Positions 1-27,127 of a stretch of 28,678 nucleotides of DNA are shown one piece after another. The DNA is from a plasmid. A model generated the notes under the pieces. It did no database searches, had not been told where the DNA came from, and saw nothing but the letters and a program-made list of their open reading frames with translations. The translations under genes and the position numbers were made by a program. Numbering within the stretch: the stretch's first letter is position 1; each line of letters starts with the position of its first letter. Location: sequence record NZ_CP027230.1; one strand, 5' to 3'.

Positions 1-582
1 CTAAAAGGCTTGCAAATTGGTACCAAAGGAACTCGCCCTGGCATACTTGATACACTTATTCAAAAAAGGCAGTTTATCACCTTACAGAAAAACAAGTATC
101 TGCCCACAGACTTAGGCCTGCAATTTTACAATGCTATCAAGAATTTAGAAGTAGTGAATGTAGCCCAAACCGCCCGTCTTGAATATCAGCTAAAGCAGAT
201 AACAGAGGGTAAGCTACTTGTTACAGAGTATTATAATAATTTGTTGGAGTATGTTAAAAATATAGTGCAAAATATTTTTAACATTGAAGCAGCTGTTAAA
301 GTGGAACGTGAAACATTAGGCACTTGCCCTAAGTGCAAACAAGGAAAAATTGTGGAGGGTAAAAAGGCTTTTGGTTGTACGAACTATAAAAGCGGTTGCG
401 ACTTTACTATTTGGAAAGAGGTAGCACATAAAAACATTACGGCCAAACAAGTGGCCGACTTAATAGGTAAAGGCAAAACAAGTCTTTTAAAAGGGTTTAA
501 GAGTAAAGCGGGTAAAGACTTTGATGCGTATCTAGTACTTAAAAATCTTAAAGTAGAATTTGAATTTAAAAATAATAAATAA
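1..582 (+). CDS. topB: DNA topoisomerase III (type IA), C-terminal 193 aa including a Cys4 zinc ribbon; continues in frame from the window end (gene spans the circular junction)
   Basis: Translation LKGLQIGTKGTRPGILDTLIQKRQFI...CPKCKQGKIVEG...FGCTNYKSGCDF has a type IA topo GIGTPATRA-like helix and a C-terminal Cx2C..Cx4C zinc ribbon. The frame is open from nt 1. Stop at 580-582. Confidence 0.75.
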   Translation, partial: LKGLQIGTKGTRPGILDTLIQKRQFITLQKNKYLPTDLGLQFYNAIKNLEVVNVAQTARLEYQLKQITEGKLLVTEYYNNLLEYVKNIVQNIFNIEAAVKVERETLGTCPKCKQGKIVEGKKAFGCTNYKSGCDFTIWKEVAHKNITAKQVADLIGKGKTSLLKGFKSKAGKDFDAYLVLKNLKVEFEFKNNK

Positions 583-3580: not shown

Positions 3581-3807
3581 AATTTTGAAAGCAATTCACA
3601 ACCAAAATATAAGGGAGAAGGTGTATGTTATAATTTTTAATACTTCCCTTATATTTATTTTGTTGTAAAATTAGGTTTTTGTAATAATAACTTAATAAAG
3701 TTAGCTATGATGATGAACTTAACTTTAAAAGTTGGTGCAAAGTTACAAAAATATTTTTACTTACACAAACATTCATACTTTATTTTTTTTCACAATTTTT
3801 TTCTTCA

Positions 3808-4934
3808 CTTCCTGCCCCTTAAAATAGGAGTAAAACATTTGTGGTGAGCCAGCCCCAAACTTTTGGACGCTGACATCACTGATCACAAATGTTTTACAAC
3901 CTTAATAGTGGTGTTGCTCACCAAAAATAAGCAACCTCGTACACAAGGTACAGAGGTAGCTTTTTTTTGGCTTCACAACAACCAAAAGCGGTGTAAAGAG
4001 GGGTGAAAAGACCTTGCCCCCACTCGTGGACGGCAAGACCTTTTTTCACCCCTCTTTACAGTGTAGTTTCTAAGCCCACCCACCGCCCTTTTGCCCCTCC
4101 CCTAACCCCTCCCCACAGGGGAGGGGAACAGACCCGAATAAGAATAAGGTGACTCATTTTTACATCGTTTTTGATTAACAGAAAAGTGTAAGTTATTATT
4201 TATCAACTAATTAAGTATTTTCTTTAACCTGGCATCAAGTAGCCTATTTATAAGCTCTTTTTTTTATTTTGGGCGTTACCACAAGGGTCGGGCTATACTC
4301 TGCAATAAAGCTCTGAGAAGTCAAGAAAATTAAGCGTTTTAGAAGTCTTCCACTAAAGTGGCAAGCCTTCTCCTCCGCTGATTTTCTAAAGCCTTCTCAT
4401 TTACTTTATTTCCGTTCCTATCCCTAACGCGGGGGGACAGTTACCAAGTCCCTATTTTGTTCTTTTTTTTCCTTAATTTTTTCTCACTTCAAATCATCTT
4501 CTTTAGCTCTCATTTTTCTACTGCAAAGGTATGGCGGGGGGAAAACACAGCAAAAAAAATGAGGCTTTCATTAATTTTTTTGTCCTCGCCAGAGGCTGCG
4601 GAAAAAAATTAACGAACCTTCCTAATTTTTTTATGCTTTAGTTTTACGAGAACCCCCCGCCCTGATAGAGCAGTAGAAAAAGAGGCAAAAGAAGATTTAG
4701 GGTTTGAGGCTTTGGGGGAAAAAATATTGTTTGCTTTTTATTTTCTCTTCTCTTTTTTGTCCGAGCCGGACGCGCTTGAAAAACTTTGTTTTTCTGTATA
4801 TATCAAACCGAAAATGATGAAAGAAAAAATATATGGCAAATGTTATATATGTAACAAAATATTTATGAAAAATATACATAATAATTTGTGTATATTATTT
4901 ATTTGTCGTATATTTGCAGTGTAATAATAATTTA
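3808..4934 (+). repeat. Copy 1 of a duplicated structured GC-rich noncoding module. Part A is 3808-4154. A unique 315-bp insertion lies at 4155-4470. Part B, about 4472-4934, ends in a sigma-A promoter
   Basis: Near-identical to 7321-8166 (parts A and B), with an extra AATAAG and the 315-bp insertion. Contains a 14-bp perfect inverted repeat (3830-3843 / 3884-3897), a hairpin plus T8 (about 3935-3968), an interrupted inverted repeat of about 26 bp (3992-4061), a C4TC4-ACA-G4AG4 hairpin (4106-4126), and a long-range helix CTACTGC..GGCGGGGGG / CCCCCCGCC..GCAGTAG (4518-4676). Confidence 0.85.
4875..4922 (+). promoter_or_regulatory. Bacteroidetes sigma-A-type promoter (-33 TTTG, 20-nt spacer, -7 TATATTTG) plus conserved leader GTGTAATAATAATTTA; drives the J-domain gene
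   Basis: TACATAATAATTTG-N20-TATATTTGCAG matches the Bacteroides consensus TTTG-N19-21-TAnnTTTG. It is one of five near-identical copies in the window. Confidence 0.6.
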
Positions 4935-4948
4935 ATAATGAATGCTTT

Positions 4949-5428
4949 ATGAAGTACTTTAACGATTGCAAGACAACAGAAGAAGCAAAAAAATTATTTA
5001 AAAAACTTGCTTTTGAGAACCACCCAGACAGGGGAGGAGATAATACGATAATGCAAGCAATAAATGCAGAATATCAGTTTTTTATTGCTAAATATGCCAC
5101 AGGTACAGCGGAAGAAATTAATGAACAATTTAACGAGCAATTGCGTTATATGGACATCATTGGTAAACTTGCAAACCTTGTGGGTATAGAGGTGGAGCAG
5201 GTGGGGGAATGGCTTTGGATAAGTGGCAACACTTATGCACATCGAGAGCAATTGAAGTCTATAGGCTGCTTGTTTGCGCCTGTTAAGAAATTGTGGTACT
5301 ATAGAGATGAAGAGCATAAGAAGAGCAGCGGAGGAACCTCCCAGAGTATGGAAGACCTTAGAACCAAGTATGGCAGCTTACATATTAATTTAAACAAAGT
5401 ACGCAGCACCTATATAGACCATAAGTAA
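4949..5428 (+). CDS. J-domain (DnaJ-like) protein, 159 aa
   Basis: N-terminus TTEEAKKLFKKLAFENHPDRGGD...MQAINAEYQF: J-domain helix II/III with the invariant HPD tripeptide. The C-terminal ~90 aa has no recognisable similarity. Confidence 0.7.
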   Translation: MKYFNDCKTTEEAKKLFKKLAFENHPDRGGDNTIMQAINAEYQFFIAKYATGTAEEINEQFNEQLRYMDIIGKLANLVGIEVEQVGEWLWISGNTYAHREQLKSIGCLFAPVKKLWYYRDEEHKKSSGGTSQSMEDLRTKYGSLHINLNKVRSTYIDHK

Positions 5429-5476
5429 AAACAATCACACACAACATTCTTTATAAGAAAAAAGTATCGAAATTTA

Positions 5477-5524
5477 TACATAATAATTTGCATATATTAT
5501 TTATTTGTCGTATCTTTGTCCTAT
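5477..5524 (+). promoter_or_regulatory. Second copy of the conserved sigma-A promoter (TTTG-N20-TATCTTTG), upstream of ssb
   Basis: TACATAATAATTTGCATATATTATTTATTTGTCGTATCTTTG, nearly identical to 4875-4916. Confidence 0.55.
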
Positions 5525-5601
5525 CAAAATGAGATAATAAAGTAAGTACTTTGACATACTGGGATAGCTTAAAAGCTTATACAAAACACACACTAAAAAG
5601 T

Positions 5602-5615
5602 GTTCCACGTGGAAC
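5602..5615. promoter_or_regulatory. Perfect 14-bp palindrome GTTCCACGTGGAAC in the ssb leader (candidate operator)
   Basis: Exact dyad symmetry read directly from the sequence. It lies 40 bp upstream of the ssb ATG and downstream of the promoter. Confidence 0.4.
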
Positions 5616-5654
5616 GTAAACAACTGATTATTAATAATTTAAATATTTTTTATT

Positions 5655-6263
5655 ATGTTTTCAATTACATTTATCGGACGCGTTACAAAGGACGCAACAG
5701 CAAAGCAGTTTGAGAAATCAAATGTGCTTAATTTTACAGTAGCCGTTAATTTTCCTACACAAGGAAAAGACGAGAACGGCGATACCATTTATGACACAAT
5801 TTATTTGCCGTGTTCAAAATGGAACTTACAAGGCGACCTTAATAAGGTTTGTGAACGCTTGAAAAAAGGTGCGCGGATAGCGGTACAAGGGTCTAAGTTG
5901 GAGGTTACAGTTCAGCAAGACCAGAATACAGGGAGGGAATACACAAATTTAAATGTAGTTGTGCAATCCTTTGAAGTGTTAGATTATCCAAAACAACCGC
6001 AAGCCGTTACACAGGGGTACGTACAACAGCAAGGGCAGCAGCTGCCACAGGGAGCTCCTCAACAAGCGTTTTACCCACCGCAAGGACAACAACAAGCACC
6101 ACAAGGACAACAACAAGCACCACAGGGGCAGGGGTTTTTTGCTAGAATGAGCGAAGAACAGGTAGCAATGCAAGCCCAAGCATTTGAGCAAGTACCGCCT
6201 GAAGTACGACACACTTACCAACAAGTACCGCAGGGACTTGAAGACGTAGATTTATCCTACTAA
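5655..6263 (+). CDS. ssb: Single-stranded DNA-binding protein, 202 aa
   Basis: OB-fold pattern hhhGRVTKDA...NFTVAVN...W......L.KG..IAVQG.L conserved against bacterial SSBs. Gln/Pro-rich flexible C-terminus with tandem PQGQQQA repeats and an acidic tip (EDVDLSY). Confidence 0.75.
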   Translation: MFSITFIGRVTKDATAKQFEKSNVLNFTVAVNFPTQGKDENGDTIYDTIYLPCSKWNLQGDLNKVCERLKKGARIAVQGSKLEVTVQQDQNTGREYTNLNVVVQSFEVLDYPKQPQAVTQGYVQQQGQQLPQGAPQQAFYPPQGQQQAPQGQQQAPQGQGFFARMSEEQVAMQAQAFEQVPPEVRHTYQQVPQGLEDVDLSY

Positions 6264-6269
6264 ACAAAC

Positions 6270-6295
6270 GACCCGAGCAAGTCGCTAAACTGCTC
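6270..6295. promoter_or_regulatory. 26-bp conserved motif GACCCGAGCAAGTCGCTAAACTGCTC, copy 1 of 3 (others at 6630-6655 and 8214-8239)
   Basis: Copies 1 and 2 are identical 26-mers, each followed by CTTTTTT. Copy 3 has 2 mismatches. All three lie immediately upstream of a gene or operon start. The motif contains the inverted repeat GAGCA-N11-TGCTC. Confidence 0.5.
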
Positions 6296-6327
6296 TTTTT
6301 TGTAATAATAATTTATTTTTTAAAGCT

Positions 6328-6618
6328 ATGACAACGAAAGAAAAAATAAAAGCAATTCGAGAACAATTTAAGCTGCTAGGGTATAATAATAGAAAAATAT
6401 CCGTTACAGATGGGGGCGGAACTCTTGAAAGTAGTATAAGGGTGCGCGTTAAATTCGTTCCTATTCTTGAACAAATCCAAGAAATTAAAGAGGTTGCGGA
6501 AAAGTTTAGGCAAGTTCTTTATGATGAAGCAACAGGTGAGATATTAGCGGGAGGTAATACTTTTGTAAATGTTTCTTATCCAAGCAACGAAGACGAGAGA
6601 AAAAGGTATTTTGTTTAA
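6328..6618 (+). CDS. Hypothetical protein, 96 aa (leading-region cassette)
   Basis: ORF preceded by the 26-bp motif and the GTAATAATAATTTA leader. No recognisable domain. Confidence 0.45.
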   Translation: MTTKEKIKAIREQFKLLGYNNRKISVTDGGGTLESSIRVRVKFVPILEQIQEIKEVAEKFRQVLYDEATGEILAGGNTFVNVSYPSNEDERKRYFV

Positions 6619-6661
6619 CCATAAGCCCCGACCCGAGCAAGTCGCTAAACTGCTCTTTTTT

Positions 6662-7279
6662 ATGAAATCAAAGAAAAAAATCATTTTCCATACAGGGCGC
6701 GGGGGGCGCTTTCACAATGGCGGTTATATAACTGCTAAAAAAATTATAGCTAATGACTTTGATGCAGGTGAGGCAGATAAGTTGGGGTATAATGTTTATT
6801 ACAACTATCAAGGCGAACCTTTCGATTTGCCCGCTACCCCAGAGGGGTGGGAAGGTATAGACCCACAAGAAATTAAAGTGCTCGATGGGGGAGGCGACGA
6901 GGTTTGTGACTATTCCGATATTTTAGCGGATTATGGCACAATGAATTTTGATAACGAATATGACGGTATTACGTGGAAGACTTTCGACTTATTAGAGGAA
7001 AGCGATTTGTTTGTAATGCTTCGCGACCTTACAACCTATGAATGTTATACTTTGTTTATAGAAAGCGATAAGTATAATTTCTACTTGTTAAAGTTACTTT
7101 TTTTAGATGGCAAACGGCTGAATTTGTCAGTGAGAGAAACCGCCGAGATATTAGCCGATGATTACCCTACCGACTTTGACGAACTTGTAAATTGTGGTCT
7201 TATTGAAGAATATGACCCAGAGGGGGGAGAATATTCGGTAGTTAAGGACGGTAAACGTTATCAACTTAATTGGATATAA
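6662..7279 (+). CDS. Strongly acidic hypothetical protein, about 205 aa (start adjusted to the ATG at 6662; the ORF track began at 6569)
   Basis: The 6569 start would force the conserved intergenic 26-bp motif (6630-6655) to be coding and would overlap the upstream ORF. The ATG at 6662 follows the motif directly. The protein carries about 45 Asp/Glu and about 12 Lys/Arg in its C-terminal 175 aa. Confidence 0.5.
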   Translation: MKSKKKIIFHTGRGGRFHNGGYITAKKIIANDFDAGEADKLGYNVYYNYQGEPFDLPATPEGWEGIDPQEIKVLDGGGDEVCDYSDILADYGTMNFDNEYDGITWKTFDLLEESDLFVMLRDLTTYECYTLFIESDKYNFYLLKLLFLDGKRLNLSVRETAEILADDYPTDFDELVNCGLIEEYDPEGGEYSVVKDGKRYQLNWI

Positions 7280-7320
7280 CACCCGCACAGGGTACAAGGG
7301 CAAGGGCTTGTAAAATAGCC

Positions 7321-8166
7321 CTTCCTGCCCCTTAAAATAGGAGTAAAACATTTGTGGTGAGCCAGCCCCAAACTTTTGGACGCTGACATCACTGATCACA
7401 AATGTTTTACAACCTTAATAGTGGTGTTGCTCACCAAAAATAAGCAACCTCGTACACAAGGTACAGAGGTAGCTTTTTTTTGGCTTCACAACAACCAAAA
7501 GCGGTGTAAAGAGGGGTGAAAAGACCTTGCCCCCACTCGTGGACGGCAAGACCTTTTTTCACCCCTCTTTACAGTGTAGTTTCTAAGCCCACCCACCGCC
7601 CTTTTGCCCCTCCCCTAACCCCTCCCCACAGGGGAGGGGAACAGACCCGAATAAGGTGACTAAAATTAAAATACTTATAATTGCCAATTTATTTTTGTTT
7701 TCTCTTAATTTTTTCTCACTTCAAATCATCTTCTTTAGCTCTCATTTTTCTACTGCAAAGGTATGGCGGGGGGAAAACACAGCAAAAAAAATGAGGCTTT
7801 CATTAATTTTTTTGTCCTCGCCAGAGGCTGCGGAAAAAAATTAACGAACCTTCCTAATTTTTTTATGCTTTAGTTTTACGAGAACCCCCCGCCCTGATAG
7901 AGCAGTAGAAAAAGAGGCAAAAGAAGATTTAGGGTTTGAGGCTTTGGGGGAAAAAATATTGTTTGCTTTTTATTTTCTCTTCTCTTTTTTGTCCGAGCCG
8001 GACGCGCTTGAAAAACTTTGTTTTTCTGTATATATCAAACCGAAAATGATGAAAGAAAAAATATATGGCAAATGTTATATATGTAACAAAATATTTATGA
8101 AAAATATACATAATAATTTGTGTATATTATTTATTTGTCGTATATTTGCAGTGTAATAATAATTAT
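7321..8166 (+). repeat. Copy 2 of the duplicated structured GC-rich noncoding module (part A 7321-7661; part B about 7704-8166), ending in a sigma-A promoter upstream of the parA/traA operon
   Basis: Direct sequence identity with 3808-4154 and 4472-4934. Local GC is about 50%, against about 30% for the surrounding DNA. Confidence 0.85.
8107..8156 (+). promoter_or_regulatory. Third copy of the conserved sigma-A promoter (identical to 4875-4922) at the 3' end of repeat copy 2, upstream of parA/traA
   Basis: Identical sequence TACATAATAATTTGTGTATATTATTTATTTGTCGTATATTTGCAGTGTAATAATAATT. Confidence 0.55.
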
Positions 8167-8281
8167 TAATAAAACAGAGCATTGTAAACACGCCTGTAAT
8201 GTAATTGAAGACTGACCCGAGTAAGTCACTAAACTGCTCATTTATATAGTATTTGTAATAACTTCTTAATAATTAAACACT

Positions 8282-9331: not shown

Positions 9332-9913
9332 ATGGCAAAGAAAACAACAACAATTTTTGAACGTGGAGCGTTTAATTTAGATAACCTCCAAGCAATTAAT
9401 AAAGCGCAGGAGGAGGAACCTGTACCTAATATCCATATCCAAGGTAAAGAGGATAAAGGTATGAAAAGATACATAATACAGTCGTATCTTACGGCTGACT
9501 ACATAAAGAAGTATGAAAAGATATATACGAAATTTATACTTTCAATAAGTAAAAGGGTGCTAAAGAAAAATTTTCTTTTCATAATGGTAAAAGCTTATGC
9601 AATCCATTTAGAAGAAAAAGGGCAGTTAAAAACGCCTCCTGATAGGGACTTTGTTCCTAATTTATTAAGAAGACTGGGGAGGAGAAAAAACGACGGTGAG
9701 AAAAAAGAAATATACGTCTTTTGCCACTGTAGAAGAATAGAAGAATACAACTTGTTAGACGACGTGCTGTATTCTTTAGCCCAAACCATTGACGACCCTG
9801 TTAATGTATTAAATCAAACATATTACTATGTTACTATGATTGATTACTTTGAAGCTCATATCAAAGAAATTATAACTGATTATAACAATTACCCAGAAAA
9901 ATATACAGTATAA
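9332..9913 (+). CDS. Hypothetical protein, 193 aa. Because it follows parA, it is a candidate partition-adaptor or TraC-like protein
   Basis: ORF tightly packed after the previous gene (2-nt gap). Basic, no recognisable motif. Confidence 0.4.
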   Translation: MAKKTTTIFERGAFNLDNLQAINKAQEEEPVPNIHIQGKEDKGMKRYIIQSYLTADYIKKYEKIYTKFILSISKRVLKKNFLFIMVKAYAIHLEEKGQLKTPPDRDFVPNLLRRLGRRKNDGEKKEIYVFCHCRRIEEYNLLDDVLYSLAQTIDDPVNVLNQTYYYVTMIDYFEAHIKEIITDYNNYPEKYTV

Positions 9914-9944
9914 TTTTTTTCTTTCAACATTAAATTTTGCAGTT

Positions 9945-11380: not shown

Positions 11381-11580
11381 AATTGCAAGATACCACGTAC
11401 AATAAAAATTAATATGCTTATTTTCAACACAATAGAAAACCAATAAAAAGTTATCAACAAATTTCAATTGCAAGATACCACGTACAAATTTCAATTGCAA
11501 GATACCACGTACGGAATTGCAAGATACCACGTACGGAATTGCAAGATACCACGTACAGGCAATTGCAAGATACCACGTAC
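11381..11580 (+). repeat. Iteron array: 6 direct copies of the 20-mer AATTGCAAGATACCACGTAC (candidate oriV or Rep/partition binding sites)
   Basis: Exact copies at 11381, 11466, 11493, 11515, 11537 and 11561. The last five are spaced 22-27 bp apart, about two helical turns. Confidence 0.8.
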
Positions 11581-11940
11581 GGAAAAATTATTATAAAATA
11601 TTGATTAACATTGTTTTAAAGCGTATTTTTTCACTCGCCAAAATTATAGTTATTATATATAAAAAGTAATTACTAAAATTTTTAGTGACTTTTTATATTT
11701 CATCATTAAAAACAAAAAAATTTAAAAAAAATCAAAACGCGATTTTCAAAAAAGGAGCAAAAAAATTTTGCAAAAAGCCAAAACTAAAAAAATGATATTA
11801 CCACCAAAATAGTCAAAACTTAAAATAAAGCCATTAAACGGCAAAATTTATTTGCAAGTATCTTTTATCGCCAGAGGCGATAAAGCACACTAAAAAAGGC
11901 TATTTTTAAGTAAAAACAAAGTTTATACTTAAAAAAGTCC
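11581..11940. other. AT-rich tract (A/T runs, about 80% AT) adjacent to the iterons; candidate DNA-unwinding element
   Basis: Composition and position between the iterons and the primase promoter. Contains the small hairpin TATCGCC-AGA-GGCGATA at about 11868-11884. Confidence 0.4.
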
Positions 11941-11978: not shown

Positions 11979-12030
11979 TACATAATAATTTGCGTATATT
12001 ATTTATTTGTTGTATCTTTGCCGTGTAATA
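11979..12030 (+). promoter_or_regulatory. Fourth copy of the conserved sigma-A promoter/leader, upstream of the primase gene
   Basis: TACATAATAATTTGCGTATATTATTTATTTGTTGTATCTTTGCCGTGTAATAATAATTTA (TTTG-N20-TATCTTTG). The upstream ATGATGAAAGAAAAAA element is also shared with the copy at 4813-4830. Confidence 0.55.
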
Positions 12031-13008: not shown

Positions 13009-13205
13009 AAAATAGGCTGTATTTTTTTTCTTTCACCATTTAATTTTTTTGTTATACCTTTGCCTAAAATATTACGGTAAAAATATGCAAAGTAAGCTCA
13101 AAAAAAAGTCTTTTTTTAAGCAGTTTTACACTGGATACTACTCCTTATTATTCAATTTTATTTATGATATTATTAACATAATAAAAGAAAATATTAAAAA
13201 TAAAG

Positions 13206-13429: not shown

Positions 13430-13890
13430 ATAATAAATAAATTTGTACCCTTAAAATTTTGTAGAGCTCAATGCTAAGAAGAGTGCCATTTTTTTTAAAT
13501 GGTGCTCTTTTTTCTTTCACTACTTACGGTTATTACAGGGCTGTTTTTTATCTATAAGGTCTCTTACTTTTTACTTGCCATTTTTCTTCTCGTCACAACT
13601 TTTATTCTGTGCTAATCTTCTTTTTTACTGGTGCCCTTATAGGGGCTTTTTTAAAAGTGTATTAGCCTTTTTTTTGTAGTGTCTCGGTCGTGACAGTAGG
13701 GAGCAAGAGGGAACGGCGGAATAAAATTCCGCAGTTCGTTAGTTGTTTGGTAATGAATGGTTTAATGATTTTATGAATATTATAGAAAGTTCAAATAAAG
13801 TTTTTAAAAGTTTTTTTCTTTCACTATTTTCTCTAAATTATTGTTTTTCAAAATTTATTTTGTAACTTTGCAAAGTTAAAATAAAGTTTT
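13430..13890. other. Candidate oriT region upstream of the mob genes
   Basis: A 460-bp noncoding stretch immediately 5' of the Mob accessory/relaxase operon. Contains several inverted repeats (AGAGTGCCATTTTTTTTAAATGGTGCTCT near 13470-13500; GCGGAAT-AAA-ATTCCGC at 13716-13732). Position only; no nic site identified. Confidence 0.3.
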
Positions 13891-20094: not shown

Positions 20095-22506
20095 ATGAAC
20101 AACGACAACAAAAAAATAGAAAATGTACTTTTTGGTAGGGAAGGCACTTTTACCATTGGTTACCGTGTGCAGCTGCCTGAAAAATATTCATTAGGAGAAA
20201 AAGACTACGATAATATTAACGAAGTTTGGGCAAGAGCTTTACGCGACTTGCCTCCCTATTCTATATTTTGTAAACACGATATTTTCGAGGTAAAGGAATA
20301 TGATACTTCTGACTTTCCTGAAAGGAATTACTTAGAAGTAGCTACTAAAAAGTATTTTAATGGCAAAGAGTATATGAAACACACTTGTAATATATTCTTT
20401 TCTTTGCCTAACAAGTTGCTAAATGTAACCTATCTTAAAAATCCTTTACGCCCCCCTCATAAAAGGCATTTTACAGAGTTTGACGAAAGAATAGAAGAAT
20501 TTACCCAACAAGTAGAACAAACTGTGCTTTATCTCAATAAGGCACAGTTGGCCAGTGGTAACAAAATAGTTGTAACTCCCTTAGATGAAAAGTATATGCA
20601 AAATTACTATAGTTACTTTTCAAGGGGGTTAGATGATTCAACTCGTGATATTATCAAGAACGACAAGTATTTGTTAGTAGGGGATAAATATGTAGGAGTG
20701 CTTAGCTTTCCTACAGAAGAAAAGTTTCCTGAGACGATAGAAACTTGTAAAATAGAAACTTCAAGCAAAAATGCTAAATACAGTTTCTTTCAAAATTACG
20801 GCGAATTTTTTTCTTTCAATATTCCTTGCACTCACATTTATTGCCAAGTGGCATTTATGGACGATCTTAAAAAGCACTATAATGATGCTCTTAGGAATAA
20901 CGCAGAACTTCATAAATCAAGAATGTTTGATCAGCAGAACAAACATTTTGCAGAGGTAACAGGTAAGATGTTAGAAAATATGGCATTAAAAGGTGATACC
21001 GAACGAATTATAAGAGGGCATAACAATGTTATATTATTTGCAGATAGTGAAGAAAAACTAAAGTCTGTAAAGAAAGATGTAAGGGCTATTTTTATAGGGC
21101 TTGATATTAAACCTAATGAACCATCAGGCGACAACCAATTAGCTATATACGAGTATTCTTTTCCACTAAATAACCATAAATTTGTAAAGAGCCATTTGTA
21201 TATAGCCAGCTTACAAATGTTTGCGGCCTTTATGAATGTTACAGGAAGCTATACAAGCGACCCTAAAGGGGTGCGCTTTAACAGCAGATTAGACAACACG
21301 CCTGTAACCATAGATATATGGGACGAGAAAAAGAAGTATATAAACGCCCGAAACTTCTTTATATTAGCAAGTACAGGGGGCGGTAAAAGTTTCTTGGCTA
21401 ACCACATCTTAACTTATGCTTATGGTGATAACACCAAATCGGTAGTGGTAGATTTAGGAGGCTCATTTAAAAAACTCACTACTTTGTTTCCACAAAGTGA
21501 AACTTCTTATATTACCTATAAGGAGGGGGAAGGACTTGGTATAAATCCTTTTTATGTAGAGGATCATAGCAAGGTAAGTGTGGAGAAATTAGAAACCTTA
21601 GCAGACTTTATAGGGGTACATTATAGGCGTGAACGCGAGATAAACCAAGAGGAGCGAAGTACCATTGTAAATATGTTAAAGCTGTATTACAATGCTGTAA
21701 CAGAAGGCCATTCTTTGCCTCAATTTATTGATACAGTGGATATGTACCGTACTGATTTTGAAAGGGAATTATCTATTAATAAGGACTTTTTCGACATTGA
21801 GGAATTTTTATTAATTATGCGTGACTTCACGCAAGGAGGTGTTTACAGTTTTTTGTACGAAAAAGTAGATAACTCTTTTTCTGCTCACATCAAAGATAAA
21901 AAACTAATAGTTTTTGAACTTGATAAGATAAAGGGTAACAAACTACTTTTGTCAGTAATGTTACAGCTTATATCTACTACTATTGAACAGGTAATTTGGA
22001 ATGACCGAAGCACAAAAGGTTATATCTTTTTTGACGAGGTGGCCGAACAGTTTCAGTGGGAAGGTATGTTAAGGCGTATAGCTTACTTCTACCAAGCTAT
22101 TAGAAAGCATTCAGGGTCTATAGGTATCGTACTACAGTCCGAAAGTCAGTTACCTGAAAGCCCTTTATCAAATGCTATTATTGAGAATACTCAAATTCTT
22201 TATGTACTCAATTCAAATGACCTAAAGGCGTTGGCCAATAGGTTTAATATGAGCGAACACGCTTATTATCAAATGACCTCTTTAAATTCAGACACAAGCG
22301 AAGAAAACCCGCGCCCTTATACTGAAATTTTCATAAAAAGGGGTAATCACCACCAAGTTTATAGGTTGGAGGTGCCCAAAAAAATATTTTGGGCATATCA
22401 AACTGAAGGTATAGAAAATGAGCAATTAATGCGTTACTATGAAGAGTTAGGAGATATGGAACAGGCTATAGACAGAATGATGAAAGAAAAAGGTCAGAAA
22501 GATTAA
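20095..22506 (+). CDS. traG: TraG, VirB4-family type IV secretion ATPase, 803 aa
   Basis: Walker A ASTGGGKSF with a downstream Walker B-like block. Size and position match Bacteroidetes TraG. Confidence 0.85.
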   Translation: MNNDNKKIENVLFGREGTFTIGYRVQLPEKYSLGEKDYDNINEVWARALRDLPPYSIFCKHDIFEVKEYDTSDFPERNYLEVATKKYFNGKEYMKHTCNIFFSLPNKLLNVTYLKNPLRPPHKRHFTEFDERIEEFTQQVEQTVLYLNKAQLASGNKIVVTPLDEKYMQNYYSYFSRGLDDSTRDIIKNDKYLLVGDKYVGVLSFPTEEKFPETIETCKIETSSKNAKYSFFQNYGEFFSFNIPCTHIYCQVAFMDDLKKHYNDALRNNAELHKSRMFDQQNKHFAEVTGKMLENMALKGDTERIIRGHNNVILFADSEEKLKSVKKDVRAIFIGLDIKPNEPSGDNQLAIYEYSFPLNNHKFVKSHLYIASLQMFAAFMNVTGSYTSDPKGVRFNSRLDNTPVTIDIWDEKKKYINARNFFILASTGGGKSFLANHILTYAYGDNTKSVVVDLGGSFKKLTTLFPQSETSYITYKEGEGLGINPFYVEDHSKVSVEKLETLADFIGVHYRREREINQEERSTIVNMLKLYYNAVTEGHSLPQFIDTVDMYRTDFERELSINKDFFDIEEFLLIMRDFTQGGVYSFLYEKVDNSFSAHIKDKKLIVFELDKIKGNKLLLSVMLQLISTTIEQVIWNDRSTKGYIFFDEVAEQFQWEGMLRRIAYFYQAIRKHSGSIGIVLQSESQLPESPLSNAIIENTQILYVLNSNDLKALANRFNMSEHAYYQMTSLNSDTSEENPRPYTEIFIKRGNHHQVYRLEVPKKIFWAYQTEGIENEQLMRYYEELGDMEQAIDRMMKEKGQKD

Positions 22507-25839: not shown

Positions 25840-26673
25840 ATGAAAAAAATATTATTTTTAACCATAGCTTTGTTTGCTATGGCAATACAAGCCCAAGAGA
25901 GTAAGAACGAAAAAACGGTAACTATAGATGTTAATACAGATATGTTTGTTCAGATTGTTTTTAAGACTCCTGTACAATCATTAAGGGTGGGAATGCCTAA
26001 TGTAGTAGAAGCTCAATATACTGAAAATGTAATAACAGTGCAGGCTTTGGCTGAAGAGCTCAAAACAAATCTTACTGTTAAAACTTCTGACGGACTTTAT
26101 TATTCTTTCATTTTGAAAGGGACAGCGGAAGTCCCAATTCTTTTTTATGAAATAAATCCATTGCAAGCAGTTAATGCAGAGGTTACTACAATTAATACAA
26201 GTAAAGAAAGTAATGGCAAGAAACAAGAGTATAAAACCTCAAAAAGTGTAGAAGAAAAAGTATTAGATAAATCAGGATATCTATCTAATAGAAATATAGC
26301 TGAATACAGAAAAATAGAACTTGGTATAAATGGTATTTATACCAATAATGGAAAGTTATATTTTCTTATGGAGGTGAGAAATAGAAGTAATATACATTAT
26401 AATGTAAGCAAACTTTCTTTTGTTACAGCTTCGATAAAAAAGGCTAAAAAACAAATAGACGCAGAGGAACAAGAATTTGAACCATTGTATTTTTATCCAG
26501 AGTTTACCGAGATAAAGCCCAAAGGGAAGGTTAAATTTGTCGCAGTATTTAATAAGTTTACACTTAACAACGACAAAGAAATGGAAATTACTTTAACAGA
26601 ACAAGACGGCGAGCGCGTTGTTAGGCTGCTTATCGATACGGAAACGATTAGTAATGCAGAAAATATAAAATAA
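25840..26673 (+). CDS. traN: TraN-like (VirB9-like) secreted protein, 277 aa
   Basis: Signal peptide MKKILFLTIALFAMAIQAQ. Position after TraM. Confidence 0.5.
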   Translation: MKKILFLTIALFAMAIQAQESKNEKTVTIDVNTDMFVQIVFKTPVQSLRVGMPNVVEAQYTENVITVQALAEELKTNLTVKTSDGLYYSFILKGTAEVPILFYEINPLQAVNAEVTTINTSKESNGKKQEYKTSKSVEEKVLDKSGYLSNRNIAEYRKIELGINGIYTNNGKLYFLMEVRNRSNIHYNVSKLSFVTASIKKAKKQIDAEEQEFEPLYFYPEFTEIKPKGKVKFVAVFNKFTLNNDKEMEITLTEQDGERVVRLLIDTETISNAENIK

Positions 26674-26682
26674 ATAATATAT

Positions 26683-26722
26683 ACATAATAATTTGTGTAA
26701 ATTATTTGTTGTATCTTTTGTG
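26683..26722 (+). promoter_or_regulatory. Fifth, more degenerate copy of the conserved promoter/leader
   Basis: TACATAATAATTTGTGTAAATTATTTGTTGTATCTTTTGTGCCATAATAATAATT. Spacer is shortened to about 16 nt. Confidence 0.4.
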
Positions 26723-26752: not shown

Positions 26753-27127
26753 ATGCAGTATTATTGTAAAAAAATCGAACTGAATAATGAGTATGAACAA
26801 ATTTATATTTGCTCATCTAATTTTGACCAAGAAGGCTATATTATAGCAGACAAAGCTTTTGGAGTAGTATTTACAGCAAAAGATGAAATAAAAGATATTT
26901 TTAATATTAACTTCCCTGTAAAATTAAAAGAAGAAGAGTTTGAACTAATTGATAAAGATACTTTTGAAAAAATATATGAATTTTCTTGGGATGTGAAAGG
27001 ATTAGATAAAGGCTACATACAACATTTAAACCATTATAATAAAAAACTTTTAAAGCAGATTGAAGAATTAAAAGGAGAAATAGAATCTATCAAATCCGCA
27101 CTAAAAAAAAATGCTAAAAAAACATAG
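26753..27127 (+). CDS. Hypothetical 124-aa protein with a C-terminal coiled coil
   Basis: ORF driven by the promoter copy above. KKLLKQIEELKGEIESIKSALKK heptads. Confidence 0.4.
   Translation: MQYYCKKIELNNEYEQIYICSSNFDQEGYIIADKAFGVVFTAKDEIKDIFNINFPVKLKEEEFELIDKDTFEKIYEFSWDVKGLDKGYIQHLNHYNKKLLKQIEELKGEIESIKSALKKNAKKT

Follow-up and report, generated by a model that had tools for sequence, protein, structure and literature searches.

Leading-region biology is known almost only from proteobacterial plasmids, and the question raised by the plasmid record NZ_CP027230.1 is whether a Bacteroidota plasmid from the human oral flora carries something comparable. The window, meaning the whole stretch of 28,678 nucleotides analysed here, is most likely the whole plasmid. 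A sequence-only reading had singled out four consecutive open reading frames (ORFs) in it, encoding a J-domain protein (ORF159), SSB, ORF96 and ORF205, as a leading-region-like cassette and a candidate establishment or anti-defence island. The four plus-strand ORFs lie where that reading had placed them (Table 1), and we give even chances to the view that they form a conserved module for early establishment, carried by a conjugative Capnocytophaga plasmid of ~28.7 kb that has a MobB relaxase and a type IV secretion system (T4SS) of Bacteroidota type. The cassette, a concrete and conserved candidate, extends the leading-region theme to a phylum where that theme is unstudied; the earlier observation was largely real, and its regulatory layout was misread. 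The most valuable leads are an RNA pseudoknot and the family of the J-domain protein.

We hypothesize that the cassette would act as two units. From the first, the HPD motif of ORF159 would recruit and activate DnaK (Hsp70) of the recipient, its DUF5710-like C-terminal domain supplying the target. From the second would come SSB, to cover the single strand as it enters, and two accessory factors, ORF96 and the swappable acidic ORF205, possibly active in counter-defence; two intercistronic pseudoknots would set the expression of the cistron that follows, either by processing and stabilization or by ribosome loading.

Conservation in sister plasmids

In metagenomic sister plasmids of 27–30 kb the arrangement is conserved: TraO and the lipoprotein gene come first, then ~2 kb of noncoding DNA, then J, SSB, LPD29 (the ORF96 equivalent) and a fourth gene X, and finally ~1.9 kb of noncoding DNA and ParA. 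The J-SSB-LPD29-X block lies between two copies of a noncoding module in three further loci (L001, L002 and L004), each from a different metagenome sample; the same gene order is found in L003, from a separate sample, where the locus starts within the upstream module copy. An unrelated 161-aa ORF takes the place of gene 4 in L001 and L003 (L001 11688–12173; 24% identity to ORF205 in a forced alignment) and starts at the exact motif-TTTTTT-ATG junction used by ORF205. Since gene 4 is swapped in these loci and the J gene is absent from another, L005, the block is kept as a unit and is modular at its ends. A swappable fourth position is as expected for an accessory or counter-defence slot, and the motif and the module may serve as recombination boundaries.

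The J-domain protein and its family

Judged by its sequence, ORF159 is a J-domain protein with a DUF5710-like C-terminal domain. Its own match to Pfam DnaJ (PF00226; 16.5 bits, E 0.009) stays below the gathering cutoff of 27.8, and it strongly matches phrog_15863 of PHROGs (E 8e-47). The H25-P26-D27 motif is invariant in all 48 aligned family members, every one of the 48 relatives matches DnaJ at E ≤ 1 (best 3.7e-8), and ORF159 has the helical-hairpin J fold. The C-terminal domain carries the motif W-x-W-x-x-G...L-K...G...K-K-x-W-Y; DUF5710 is matched there by 9 of the 48 members, and no solved structural relative of this domain was found.

Mobile-element- and virus-encoded J domains are known elsewhere: Rki of phage RB43 is a J-domain protein that binds DnaK (PMC3486835), and polyomavirus T antigens are among the PDB matches of ORF159. 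The HPD-bearing J domain commandeering host Hsp70 is the common trait; unlike Rki and the T antigens, ORF159 has a DUF5710-like C-terminal domain, and no similarity extends beyond the J domain.

The family is present in ~2,700 sequenced plasmids (2,690 by tblastn against PLSDB, 2,214 of them conjugative), including 1,026 from Escherichia, 529 from Klebsiella, 303 from Enterococcus and 266 from Acinetobacter; examples of homologue sites are NZ_CP024149.1 26752–27267 and NZ_CP060972.1 10622–11137. Carriers include the IncX4 mcr-1 plasmid p14EC033b (33 kb) and the IncX3 NDM-5 plasmid pEC5-NDM-5 (46 kb), and the location of the gene predicts that its product acts within the first minutes following transfer. 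In both plasmids the J gene adjoins a divergent rep gene and comes first in a co-oriented run of small uncharacterized genes ending at taxA/ddp1, the taxC relaxase gene and the T4SS. The protein is homologous to ORF159 (35–37% identity over 75–85% of its length) and likewise opens the run, whereas ssb, LPD29 and the pseudoknot motif are missing from the IncX blocks and their other small genes have no Pfam match.

Another carrier is a pheromone-type plasmid of Enterococcus faecalis in which J is succeeded by ssb, thermonuclease and RelB/YafQ and, at a greater distance, by DpnD/PcfM, an annotated AcrIIA9-family gene 3.3 kb downstream of J/ssb, and PcfJ. Here too the J gene directly precedes ssb in a co-oriented block, which holds an annotated anti-CRISPR family gene; host phylum, T4SS type and downstream genes differ, and the pseudoknot motif was not found in that plasmid. 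In a Bacteroidota element resembling an integrative and conjugative element (ICE), ten small ORFs with the J gene at their head lie upstream of NikA, a relaxase and a T4 coupling protein (T4CP). In Firmicutes elements and phages it stands beside orphan methyltransferases, LPD29, Rad52 and SSB; in ICEs and phages its place is near the beginning of small-gene blocks with orphan methyltransferases, LPD29 and SSB. Three proteins (P0065–67) have the J domain fused directly to LPD29, which links genes 1 and 3 of the cassette. We found no functional study of this J family in the literature; in Samuel et al. (PMC11541004) DnaJ appears only as a five-member family in a supplementary table.

Transcription units and the ssb leader

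A scan with the Bacteroidota consensus TTTG-N17-23-TAnnTTTG yielded four near-identical promoters of the form TTTG-N20-TAnnTTTG in the window, two of them in the cassette. The sequence-only reading had assigned every gene its own copy of this promoter and of a 26-bp motif; in fact, within the cassette, only ORF159 and SSB have the promoter and only ORF96 and ORF205 the motif, a further copy of which precedes ParA; the consensus scan gave no promoter before ORF96 or ORF205. Promoters and motifs are therefore complementary within the cassette and define two units, P-ORF159 and P-leader-SSB-motif-ORF96-motif-ORF205. Elsewhere in the window, a degenerate fifth promoter copy (26662–26710), with one extra T in its -7 box, precedes a 124-aa ORF (26753–27127).

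In the second unit, a 136-nt leader separates the promoter from SSB and contains the palindrome GTTCCACGTGGAAC, which is kept in all sister plasmids. Its CCACGT core is common to six iterons of ~22–27 bp located between a 377-aa ORF and the primase gene, and 8 of the 12 CCACGT/ACGTGG sites in the window fall in the iterons or in the palindrome. We consider GTTCCACGTGGAAC a candidate operator for the Rep-like initiator, the 377-aa protein, a proposal suggested by the shared core. Such an operator fits shut-off after establishment and, equally well, plain replication-linked control.

The latter leads to the main alternative, which is possible, if rather doubtful: the cassette would be a helper module for vegetative replication and maintenance, in which ORF159 brings DnaK to the iteron-binding initiator, SSB serves replication and Rep represses the unit through the palindrome. 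Host DnaJ, DnaK and GrpE act in this way on P1 RepA and F RepE. The cassette does adjoin the par-rep-iteron-primase region, the palindrome with its iteron core is conserved among the sister plasmids, and the J gene of IncX3 and IncX4 plasmids lies directly beside the initiator gene. However, the J family also occurs in ICEs, integrative and mobilizable elements (IMEs) and phages that have no iteron replicon nearby, L005 keeps the rest of the cassette while lacking the J gene, and the association with orphan methyltransferase, LPD29 and Acr genes would not be expected of a replication helper.

An intercistronic RNA pseudoknot

The 26-nt motif GACCCGAGCAAGTCGCTAAACTGCTC occurs exactly three times in the window (against 0 in 100 shuffles), and a covariance model adds no further copy. 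According to the covariation described below, it belongs to a 28-nt H-type RNA pseudoknot in mRNA sense, with stem S1 nGAC/GUCn', loop L1 CY, stem S2 RAGYA/UGCUY', a loop L2 of 1 nt and loop L3 NUAAAC. The third window copy has a T-A instead of a C-G closing pair in S1 and a G.U pair in S2. In the sister plasmids the motif stands at the same three positions, and it is also found upstream of an LPD29 homologue in a prophage-like element.

Copies were collected with the pattern GACCNNAGNANGTCNNTAAACTGCT (19 fixed bases), which recovered at least 120 loci in one-genome-per-species contigs and at least 120 in IMG/VR; assuming uniform base composition, ~4 matches would be expected by chance in 596 Gb. 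Among 236 distinct copies, 145 have a Watson-Crick pair at -1/15, where 68 would be expected, and 33 have G.U; each of the four Watson-Crick types is represented at this pair. At pair 6/26 the counts are 166 Watson-Crick (101 expected) and 28 G.U, and at pair 9/23 they are 161 C-G and 75 U.G. The covariation measured in a 120-sequence alignment was reached by none of 500 shuffles, and slid registers collapse. Diverged copies identified with the covariance model include compensatory exchanges of G1-C14 to C-G (CAC...GTG in L177 and L210), and in L204 a 24-nt hairpin is inserted in loop 3. The frequent G.T wobbles (75 at pair 9/23), with A.C pairs almost absent, point to one folded strand, that in mRNA sense; a protein site at the DNA level was rejected on this asymmetry.

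The at least 240 loci (L018–L257) belong to phages, plasmids, ICE-like regions and genomes of many phyla. Hosts include Nostoc, Calothrix, Patescibacteria, Saccharibacteria, Lactobacillales, Streptococcus, Staphylococcus, Lachnospiraceae, Flavobacteriia, Planctomycetes, Rickettsiales and one DPANN archaeon (a metagenome-assembled genome). Flanks are unconserved save for a T-rich tail. ORFs of at least 60 aa on both sides of the motif run in sense in 66 of 199 cases, against 4 in antisense, and the motif often starts within 20 nt of a stop codon and is located 20–40 nt before a start codon. Phage scaffold/GP20 genes follow in 48 of 179 cases, and Zn-ribbon, SNase and Bro-N genes are also found downstream; HSP20, Mu-F head morphogenesis, ArdA and DUF932 genes are found upstream. 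A Calothrix locus with the order ArdA, motif, 161-aa ORF, motif, 116-aa ORF mirrors the layout of the cassette.

Most economically, the pseudoknot would be a processing or stabilizing element, or a ribosome-loading element, for the downstream cistron. A plain intrinsic terminator fits poorly because genes without a promoter that need expression (ORF96, ORF205, phage scaffold) follow the motif; in addition, S2 has only 5 bp and an 11-nt loop. Stop-codon readthrough or frameshifting was rejected: it would add a meaningless 13 aa after ssb, and in many copies no stop codon closely precedes the motif. A parS centromere role for the three window copies is argued against by the wide distribution of the motif upstream of unrelated genes. 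The AAGUCGU segment may resemble 16S rRNA positions 1492–1498.

With a 4-bp S1, a 2-nt L1, a 5-bp S2 and an A-rich L3, the element resembles in topology and size two small H-type pseudoknots of mRNA leaders, the autoregulatory one of T4 gene 32 and the preQ1-I aptamer; its place just upstream of a cistron is likewise shared with them, and many copies share with the GP20-a and GP20-b motifs a position upstream of GP20/scaffold genes. It differs from all of these in sequence and is tied to no single gene family or phylum. An identity with preQ1-I, GP20-a, GP20-b or DUF805b was rejected, none of their covariance models matching the motif; Rfam 15, which includes PreQ1, GP20-a, GP20-b and DUF805b, gave no match at the gathering threshold, nor at E ≤ 10 in short windows. 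A literature search with the literal motif sequence returned primers only. Besides GP20-a and GP20-b, the literature describes six candidates without names that lie upstream of GP20 genes (PMC10690425) and may overlap with the present element. As a compact, covarying RNA outside Rfam, ranging from Cyanobacteria to bacteria of the candidate phyla radiation (CPR), the pseudoknot is a directly testable candidate for a new cis-regulatory RNA.

Three further observations concern this element. Two matches lie inside repeat-flanked CRISPR spacers (L089, Veillonella, ~2447–2472; L036, Saprospirales, ~4587–4611), so hosts hold spacers against motif-bearing elements. In Firmicutes phage copies (L063, 4903–4925; also L080, L081, L094, L106, L115 and L133), the stretch that separates the pseudoknot from the scaffold gene's Shine-Dalgarno sequence contains another conserved hairpin, CGUGG...CCACG, with an A-run behind it; this hairpin has a weak PreQ1-like match (E 1.5). 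A DUF805b RNA (RF02914, 45 bits; L086 5149–5185, minus strand) occurs in the same small-gene array as three pseudoknot copies and is a different small motif in an equivalent position.

Noncoding modules and the leading-region question

The cassette was correctly described as bracketed by two copies of a structured noncoding module: two segments, of 337 and 463 nt, are each 100% identical between copies A and B (Table 1), and the folding of both, whichever strand is taken, is far better than that of shuffled sequences (z -7.7 to -10.3). The modules of the sister plasmids are 72–85% identical to those of the window. A segment present only in copy A (4143–4469) contains no ORF and has no Rfam match; its core (4242–4435) is 87–89% conserved in both module copies of L001 and L005 and is better conserved than the rest of the module.

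Each module copy contains a ~243-nt hairpin whose core is invariant in six copies (those of the window and of three sister-plasmid loci) and whose outer stem covaries. Its 3' arm holds a promoter consensus on the minus strand. Folding of the minus strand puts the -33 box into duplex and leaves the -7 box within an 8x8 internal loop, with the promoter pointing from the loop to the base. On this folding model, the consensus is a candidate single-strand-DNA promoter with the geometry of an Frpo analogue; if the minus strand is the transferred strand (T-strand), the folded DNA would drive plus-sense transcription into ORF159 from copy A and into ParA from copy B. Alternatively, it is an ordinary leftward duplex promoter reading into the conserved 4143–4469 segment.

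Whether the cassette enters a recipient early depends on the origin of transfer (oriT). In the definition of Samuel et al. 2024 (PMC11541004), the leading side is the side of oriT away from the relaxase gene, whose own side counts as lagging; anti-defence genes are enriched there over ~30 ORFs, all oriented for transcription with the T-strand as template. The cassette is located upstream of the operon of a mobA-like gene, MobB relaxase and T4CP, co-oriented with it at a distance of 5.7–8.9 kb, and by this convention would be on the leading side with the T-strand as template. In CTnDOT-type mob operons, oriT lies upstream of the mobA-like gene. If oriT is in the corresponding gap at 13.0–13.9 kb, the minus strand would be transferred, and entry would begin with primase and go on through iterons and rep, par, ORF205, ORF96 and SSB to ORF159. 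In this order the cassette would comprise leading-side ORFs 6–9, with every gene correctly oriented. The leading-region claim of the earlier reading is partly supported, by this position, by the contexts of the J family and by the swapped gene 4; no known anti-defence family was found among the cassette proteins.

F-like and IncI leading regions (ssb, psiB and ardA under the single-strand promoters Frpo/ssi) offer a close comparison. They share with the cassette a plasmid ssb among small accessory genes, transcription toward oriT and the relaxase such that the transferred strand can be the template (PMC11541004), and repeated structured noncoding elements upstream of genes. In contrast to them, the cassette has no psiB, ardA, klcA or acr homologue and uses Bacteroidota -33/-7 promoters; rep and par stand between cassette and mob, and oriT is placed by assumption. 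The modules show no similarity to Frpo and no Rfam match. It is unlikely, though conceivable, that the cassette is a full Bacteroidota counterpart of the F leading region, combining an Frpo-analogue hairpin, a first-expressed J-domain "DnaK hijacker" and a new class of cis-acting pseudoknot RNA. In that case the transferred strand, once folded, would recreate a promoter of the -33/-7 kind, its -7 box pre-melted, that suits another sigma-factor consensus than Frpo. The pseudoknot could punctuate phage and plasmid operons and serve there as a ribozyme or site of processing, load ribosomes or sense a ligand.

Several points weigh against an early-establishment module. Its leading-side position would hold only for the assumed oriT and nick strand; the primase gene, iterons, Rep-like gene and par genes intervene between cassette and mob; and because all plasmid genes lie on one strand, orientation is uninformative. 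L005 lacks the J gene with the layout otherwise the same. An iteron-core palindrome in the ssb leader fits control by the initiator as well as zygotic induction. Searches of Pfam, NCBIfam, PHROGs and PDB matched the cassette proteins to no known anti-defence family, and the AlphaFold2 model of ORF205, built from a three-sequence alignment, is unusable (mean confidence score, pLDDT, 34).

SSB, ORF96, ORF205 and the anti-defence question

The identification of SSB held (PF00436, E 9.5e-14, 51.8 bits against a cutoff of 26; TIGR00621, 63.1 against 53.95). Its tip, unlike the canonical DDDIPF, is kept as EDVD(L/M)SY in three sister plasmids; it ends in an aromatic residue.

A hypothetical protein listed by NCBI for Capnocytophaga sp. 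oral taxon 878 has the same sequence as ORF96 (100% identity). Its match to LPD29 (PF18847; 17.2 bits, E 0.0085) is below the cutoff of 27; homologues at 58–94% identity carry a precomputed PF18847 match. ORF96 weakly matches the N-terminal two thirds of the profile, whereas its C-terminal DEATGEILxGGNTFV motif is specific to its own subfamily. For LPD29, a domain of polyvalent proteins, an early role in invasion has been proposed, and solo LPDs have been reported beside T4SS and phage genes (PMC5512222). LPD29 genes are also found in aca4 (Aca-regulated) operons.

The 205-aa protein is acidic, as had been stated (pI 4.30, net charge -21). Its start was placed at 6662, and not at that of a longer ORF from 6569, because homologues begin at the 6662 ATG. 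The family is rare, with 18 clusters among 1.84 billion representatives, and has the conserved motif FHTGRGGRFNN; searches in Pfam, NCBIfam, PHROGs, PDB profiles and PLSDB (tblastn) gave no credible match for ORF205, Pfam ArdA included; a sub-threshold CBM65_1 hit (E 0.0024) was rejected as a chance match in Pfam. One distant relative is encoded in a viral contig beside a helix-turn-helix (HTH) gene.

That ORF159, ORF96 and ORF205 each directly inhibit recipient defence, as parts of a dedicated anti-defence island, is in our estimation quite improbable. ORF205 could be an acidic DNA mimic acting against restriction enzymes, and its pI, charge and swappable slot are in favour; ORF159 could titrate DnaK/DnaJ away from a defence sensor, in line with the requirement of bNACHT25 sensing for host DnaJ reported in PMC12169576. 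The Aca-regulated operons with LPD29 genes, the AcrIIA9-family gene in the Enterococcus J-ssb block and the ArdA genes flanked by the same pseudoknot in other elements point in the same direction. Nevertheless, searches of Pfam, NCBIfam, PHROGs and PDB with the 159-, 96- and 205-aa proteins returned no anti-defence family, and no sequence or fold match to a known anti-defence protein was found; ardA, psiB, klcA and acr likewise gave no match in Pfam, NCBIfam and PHROGs. Acidity by itself counts for little, few relatives of ORF205 exist (the 18 clusters), and the J family is far too widespread and uniform for an inhibitor of one defence system. Very improbable is passenger DNA with no role in transfer, duplicated or deleted by recombination between the identical 0.8–1.1-kb modules: the 100% identity of the modules and the varying content (no J gene in L005, gene 4 swapped in L001 and L003) would fit it, but the two-module architecture and gene order are kept despite module divergence to 72–85% identity, and ssb recurs together with the J gene in elements that are unrelated.

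Plasmid context

All convincing genes of the window are on the plus strand. After the topoisomerase C-terminus, the order is a TraO-like gene, a 773-aa lipoprotein gene, module A, the four-gene cassette, module B, ParA, two small ORFs, the 377-aa ORF, the iterons, a Toprim primase gene and an 880-bp gap. The gap is followed by a 219-aa ORF (mobA-like), the MobB-family relaxase and T4CP genes, and Bacteroidota-type tra genes (P-loop TraG, TraM and DUF4138/TraN-like). No tRNA was found in the window, nor any Rfam family at the gathering threshold, and the DNA of cassette and modules has no match in PLSDB in near or distant mode.

Table 1. Coordinates of the cassette and associated features in the 28,678-nt window.
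Feature	Position	Strand	Remarks
Topoisomerase C-terminus	10–582	+	
Module copy A, segment 1	3806–4142		Hairpin stack, several followed by T-runs; z -8.8 (RNA, +), -10.3 (DNA, -); identical to 7319–7655
Copy-A-only segment	4143–4469		327 nt, absent from copy B
Module copy A, segment 2	4470–4932		Long imperfect hairpin, ends in ORF159 promoter; z -7.7 to -8.7; identical to 7702–8164
Hairpin of ~243 nt	4480–4722; 7712–7954		
Candidate promoter in hairpin 3' arm	4524–4554	-	TTTG-N19-TAccTTTG; repeated at 7756–7786
ORF159 promoter	4885–4916	+	TTTG-N20-TATATTTG
ORF159	4949–5428	+	159 aa; J domain residues ~8–53, HPD 25–27; beta-beta-alpha-beta-beta C-terminal domain ~80–118
Promoter of SSB-ORF96-ORF205 unit	5487–5518	+	TTTG-N20-TATCTTTG
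Palindrome GTTCCACGTGGAAC	5602–5615		Perfect, 14 bp; ssb leader
SSB	5655–6263	+	202 aa; OB-fold domain, Q/P-rich linker, acidic tip EDVDLSY
Pseudoknot copy 1	6269–6301 (motif 6270–6295)	+	S1 cGAC/GTCg, S2 GAGCA/TGCTC, T6 run; between ssb stop and ORF96 start; 49.1 bits
ORF96	6328–6618	+	96 aa; small, basic, weakly LPD29-like
Pseudoknot copy 2	6629–6661 (motif 6630–6655)	+	T6 run, abuts ORF205 ATG; 49.0 bits
ORF205	6662–7279	+	205 aa; acidic, conserved N-terminal motif FHTGRGGRFxN
Module copy B, segment 1	7319–7655		
Module copy B, segment 2	7702–8164		Ends in ParA promoter
ParA promoter	8117–8148		Consensus scan; outside cassette
Pseudoknot copy 3	8213–8247 (motif 8214–8239)	+	ParA leader; 47.0 bits
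Six iterons	11381–11587		
Primase promoter	11989–12020		Consensus scan; outside cassette

Two minor observations concern the plasmid as a whole. The first, at window 1–582 and 27.2–28.678 kb, is that the sequence opens inside a topoisomerase gene, with only the C-terminal domains present; this, together with the placement of the genes on one strand, is consistent with a circular plasmid cut within topB. In addition, a 20-nt repeat, AATTTTTTTCTTTCAACATT, occurs with variants after a 193-aa ORF (9912–9931), after the primase gene (13021–13040), before the mobA-like gene (13809–13828) and inside traG (20804–20823).

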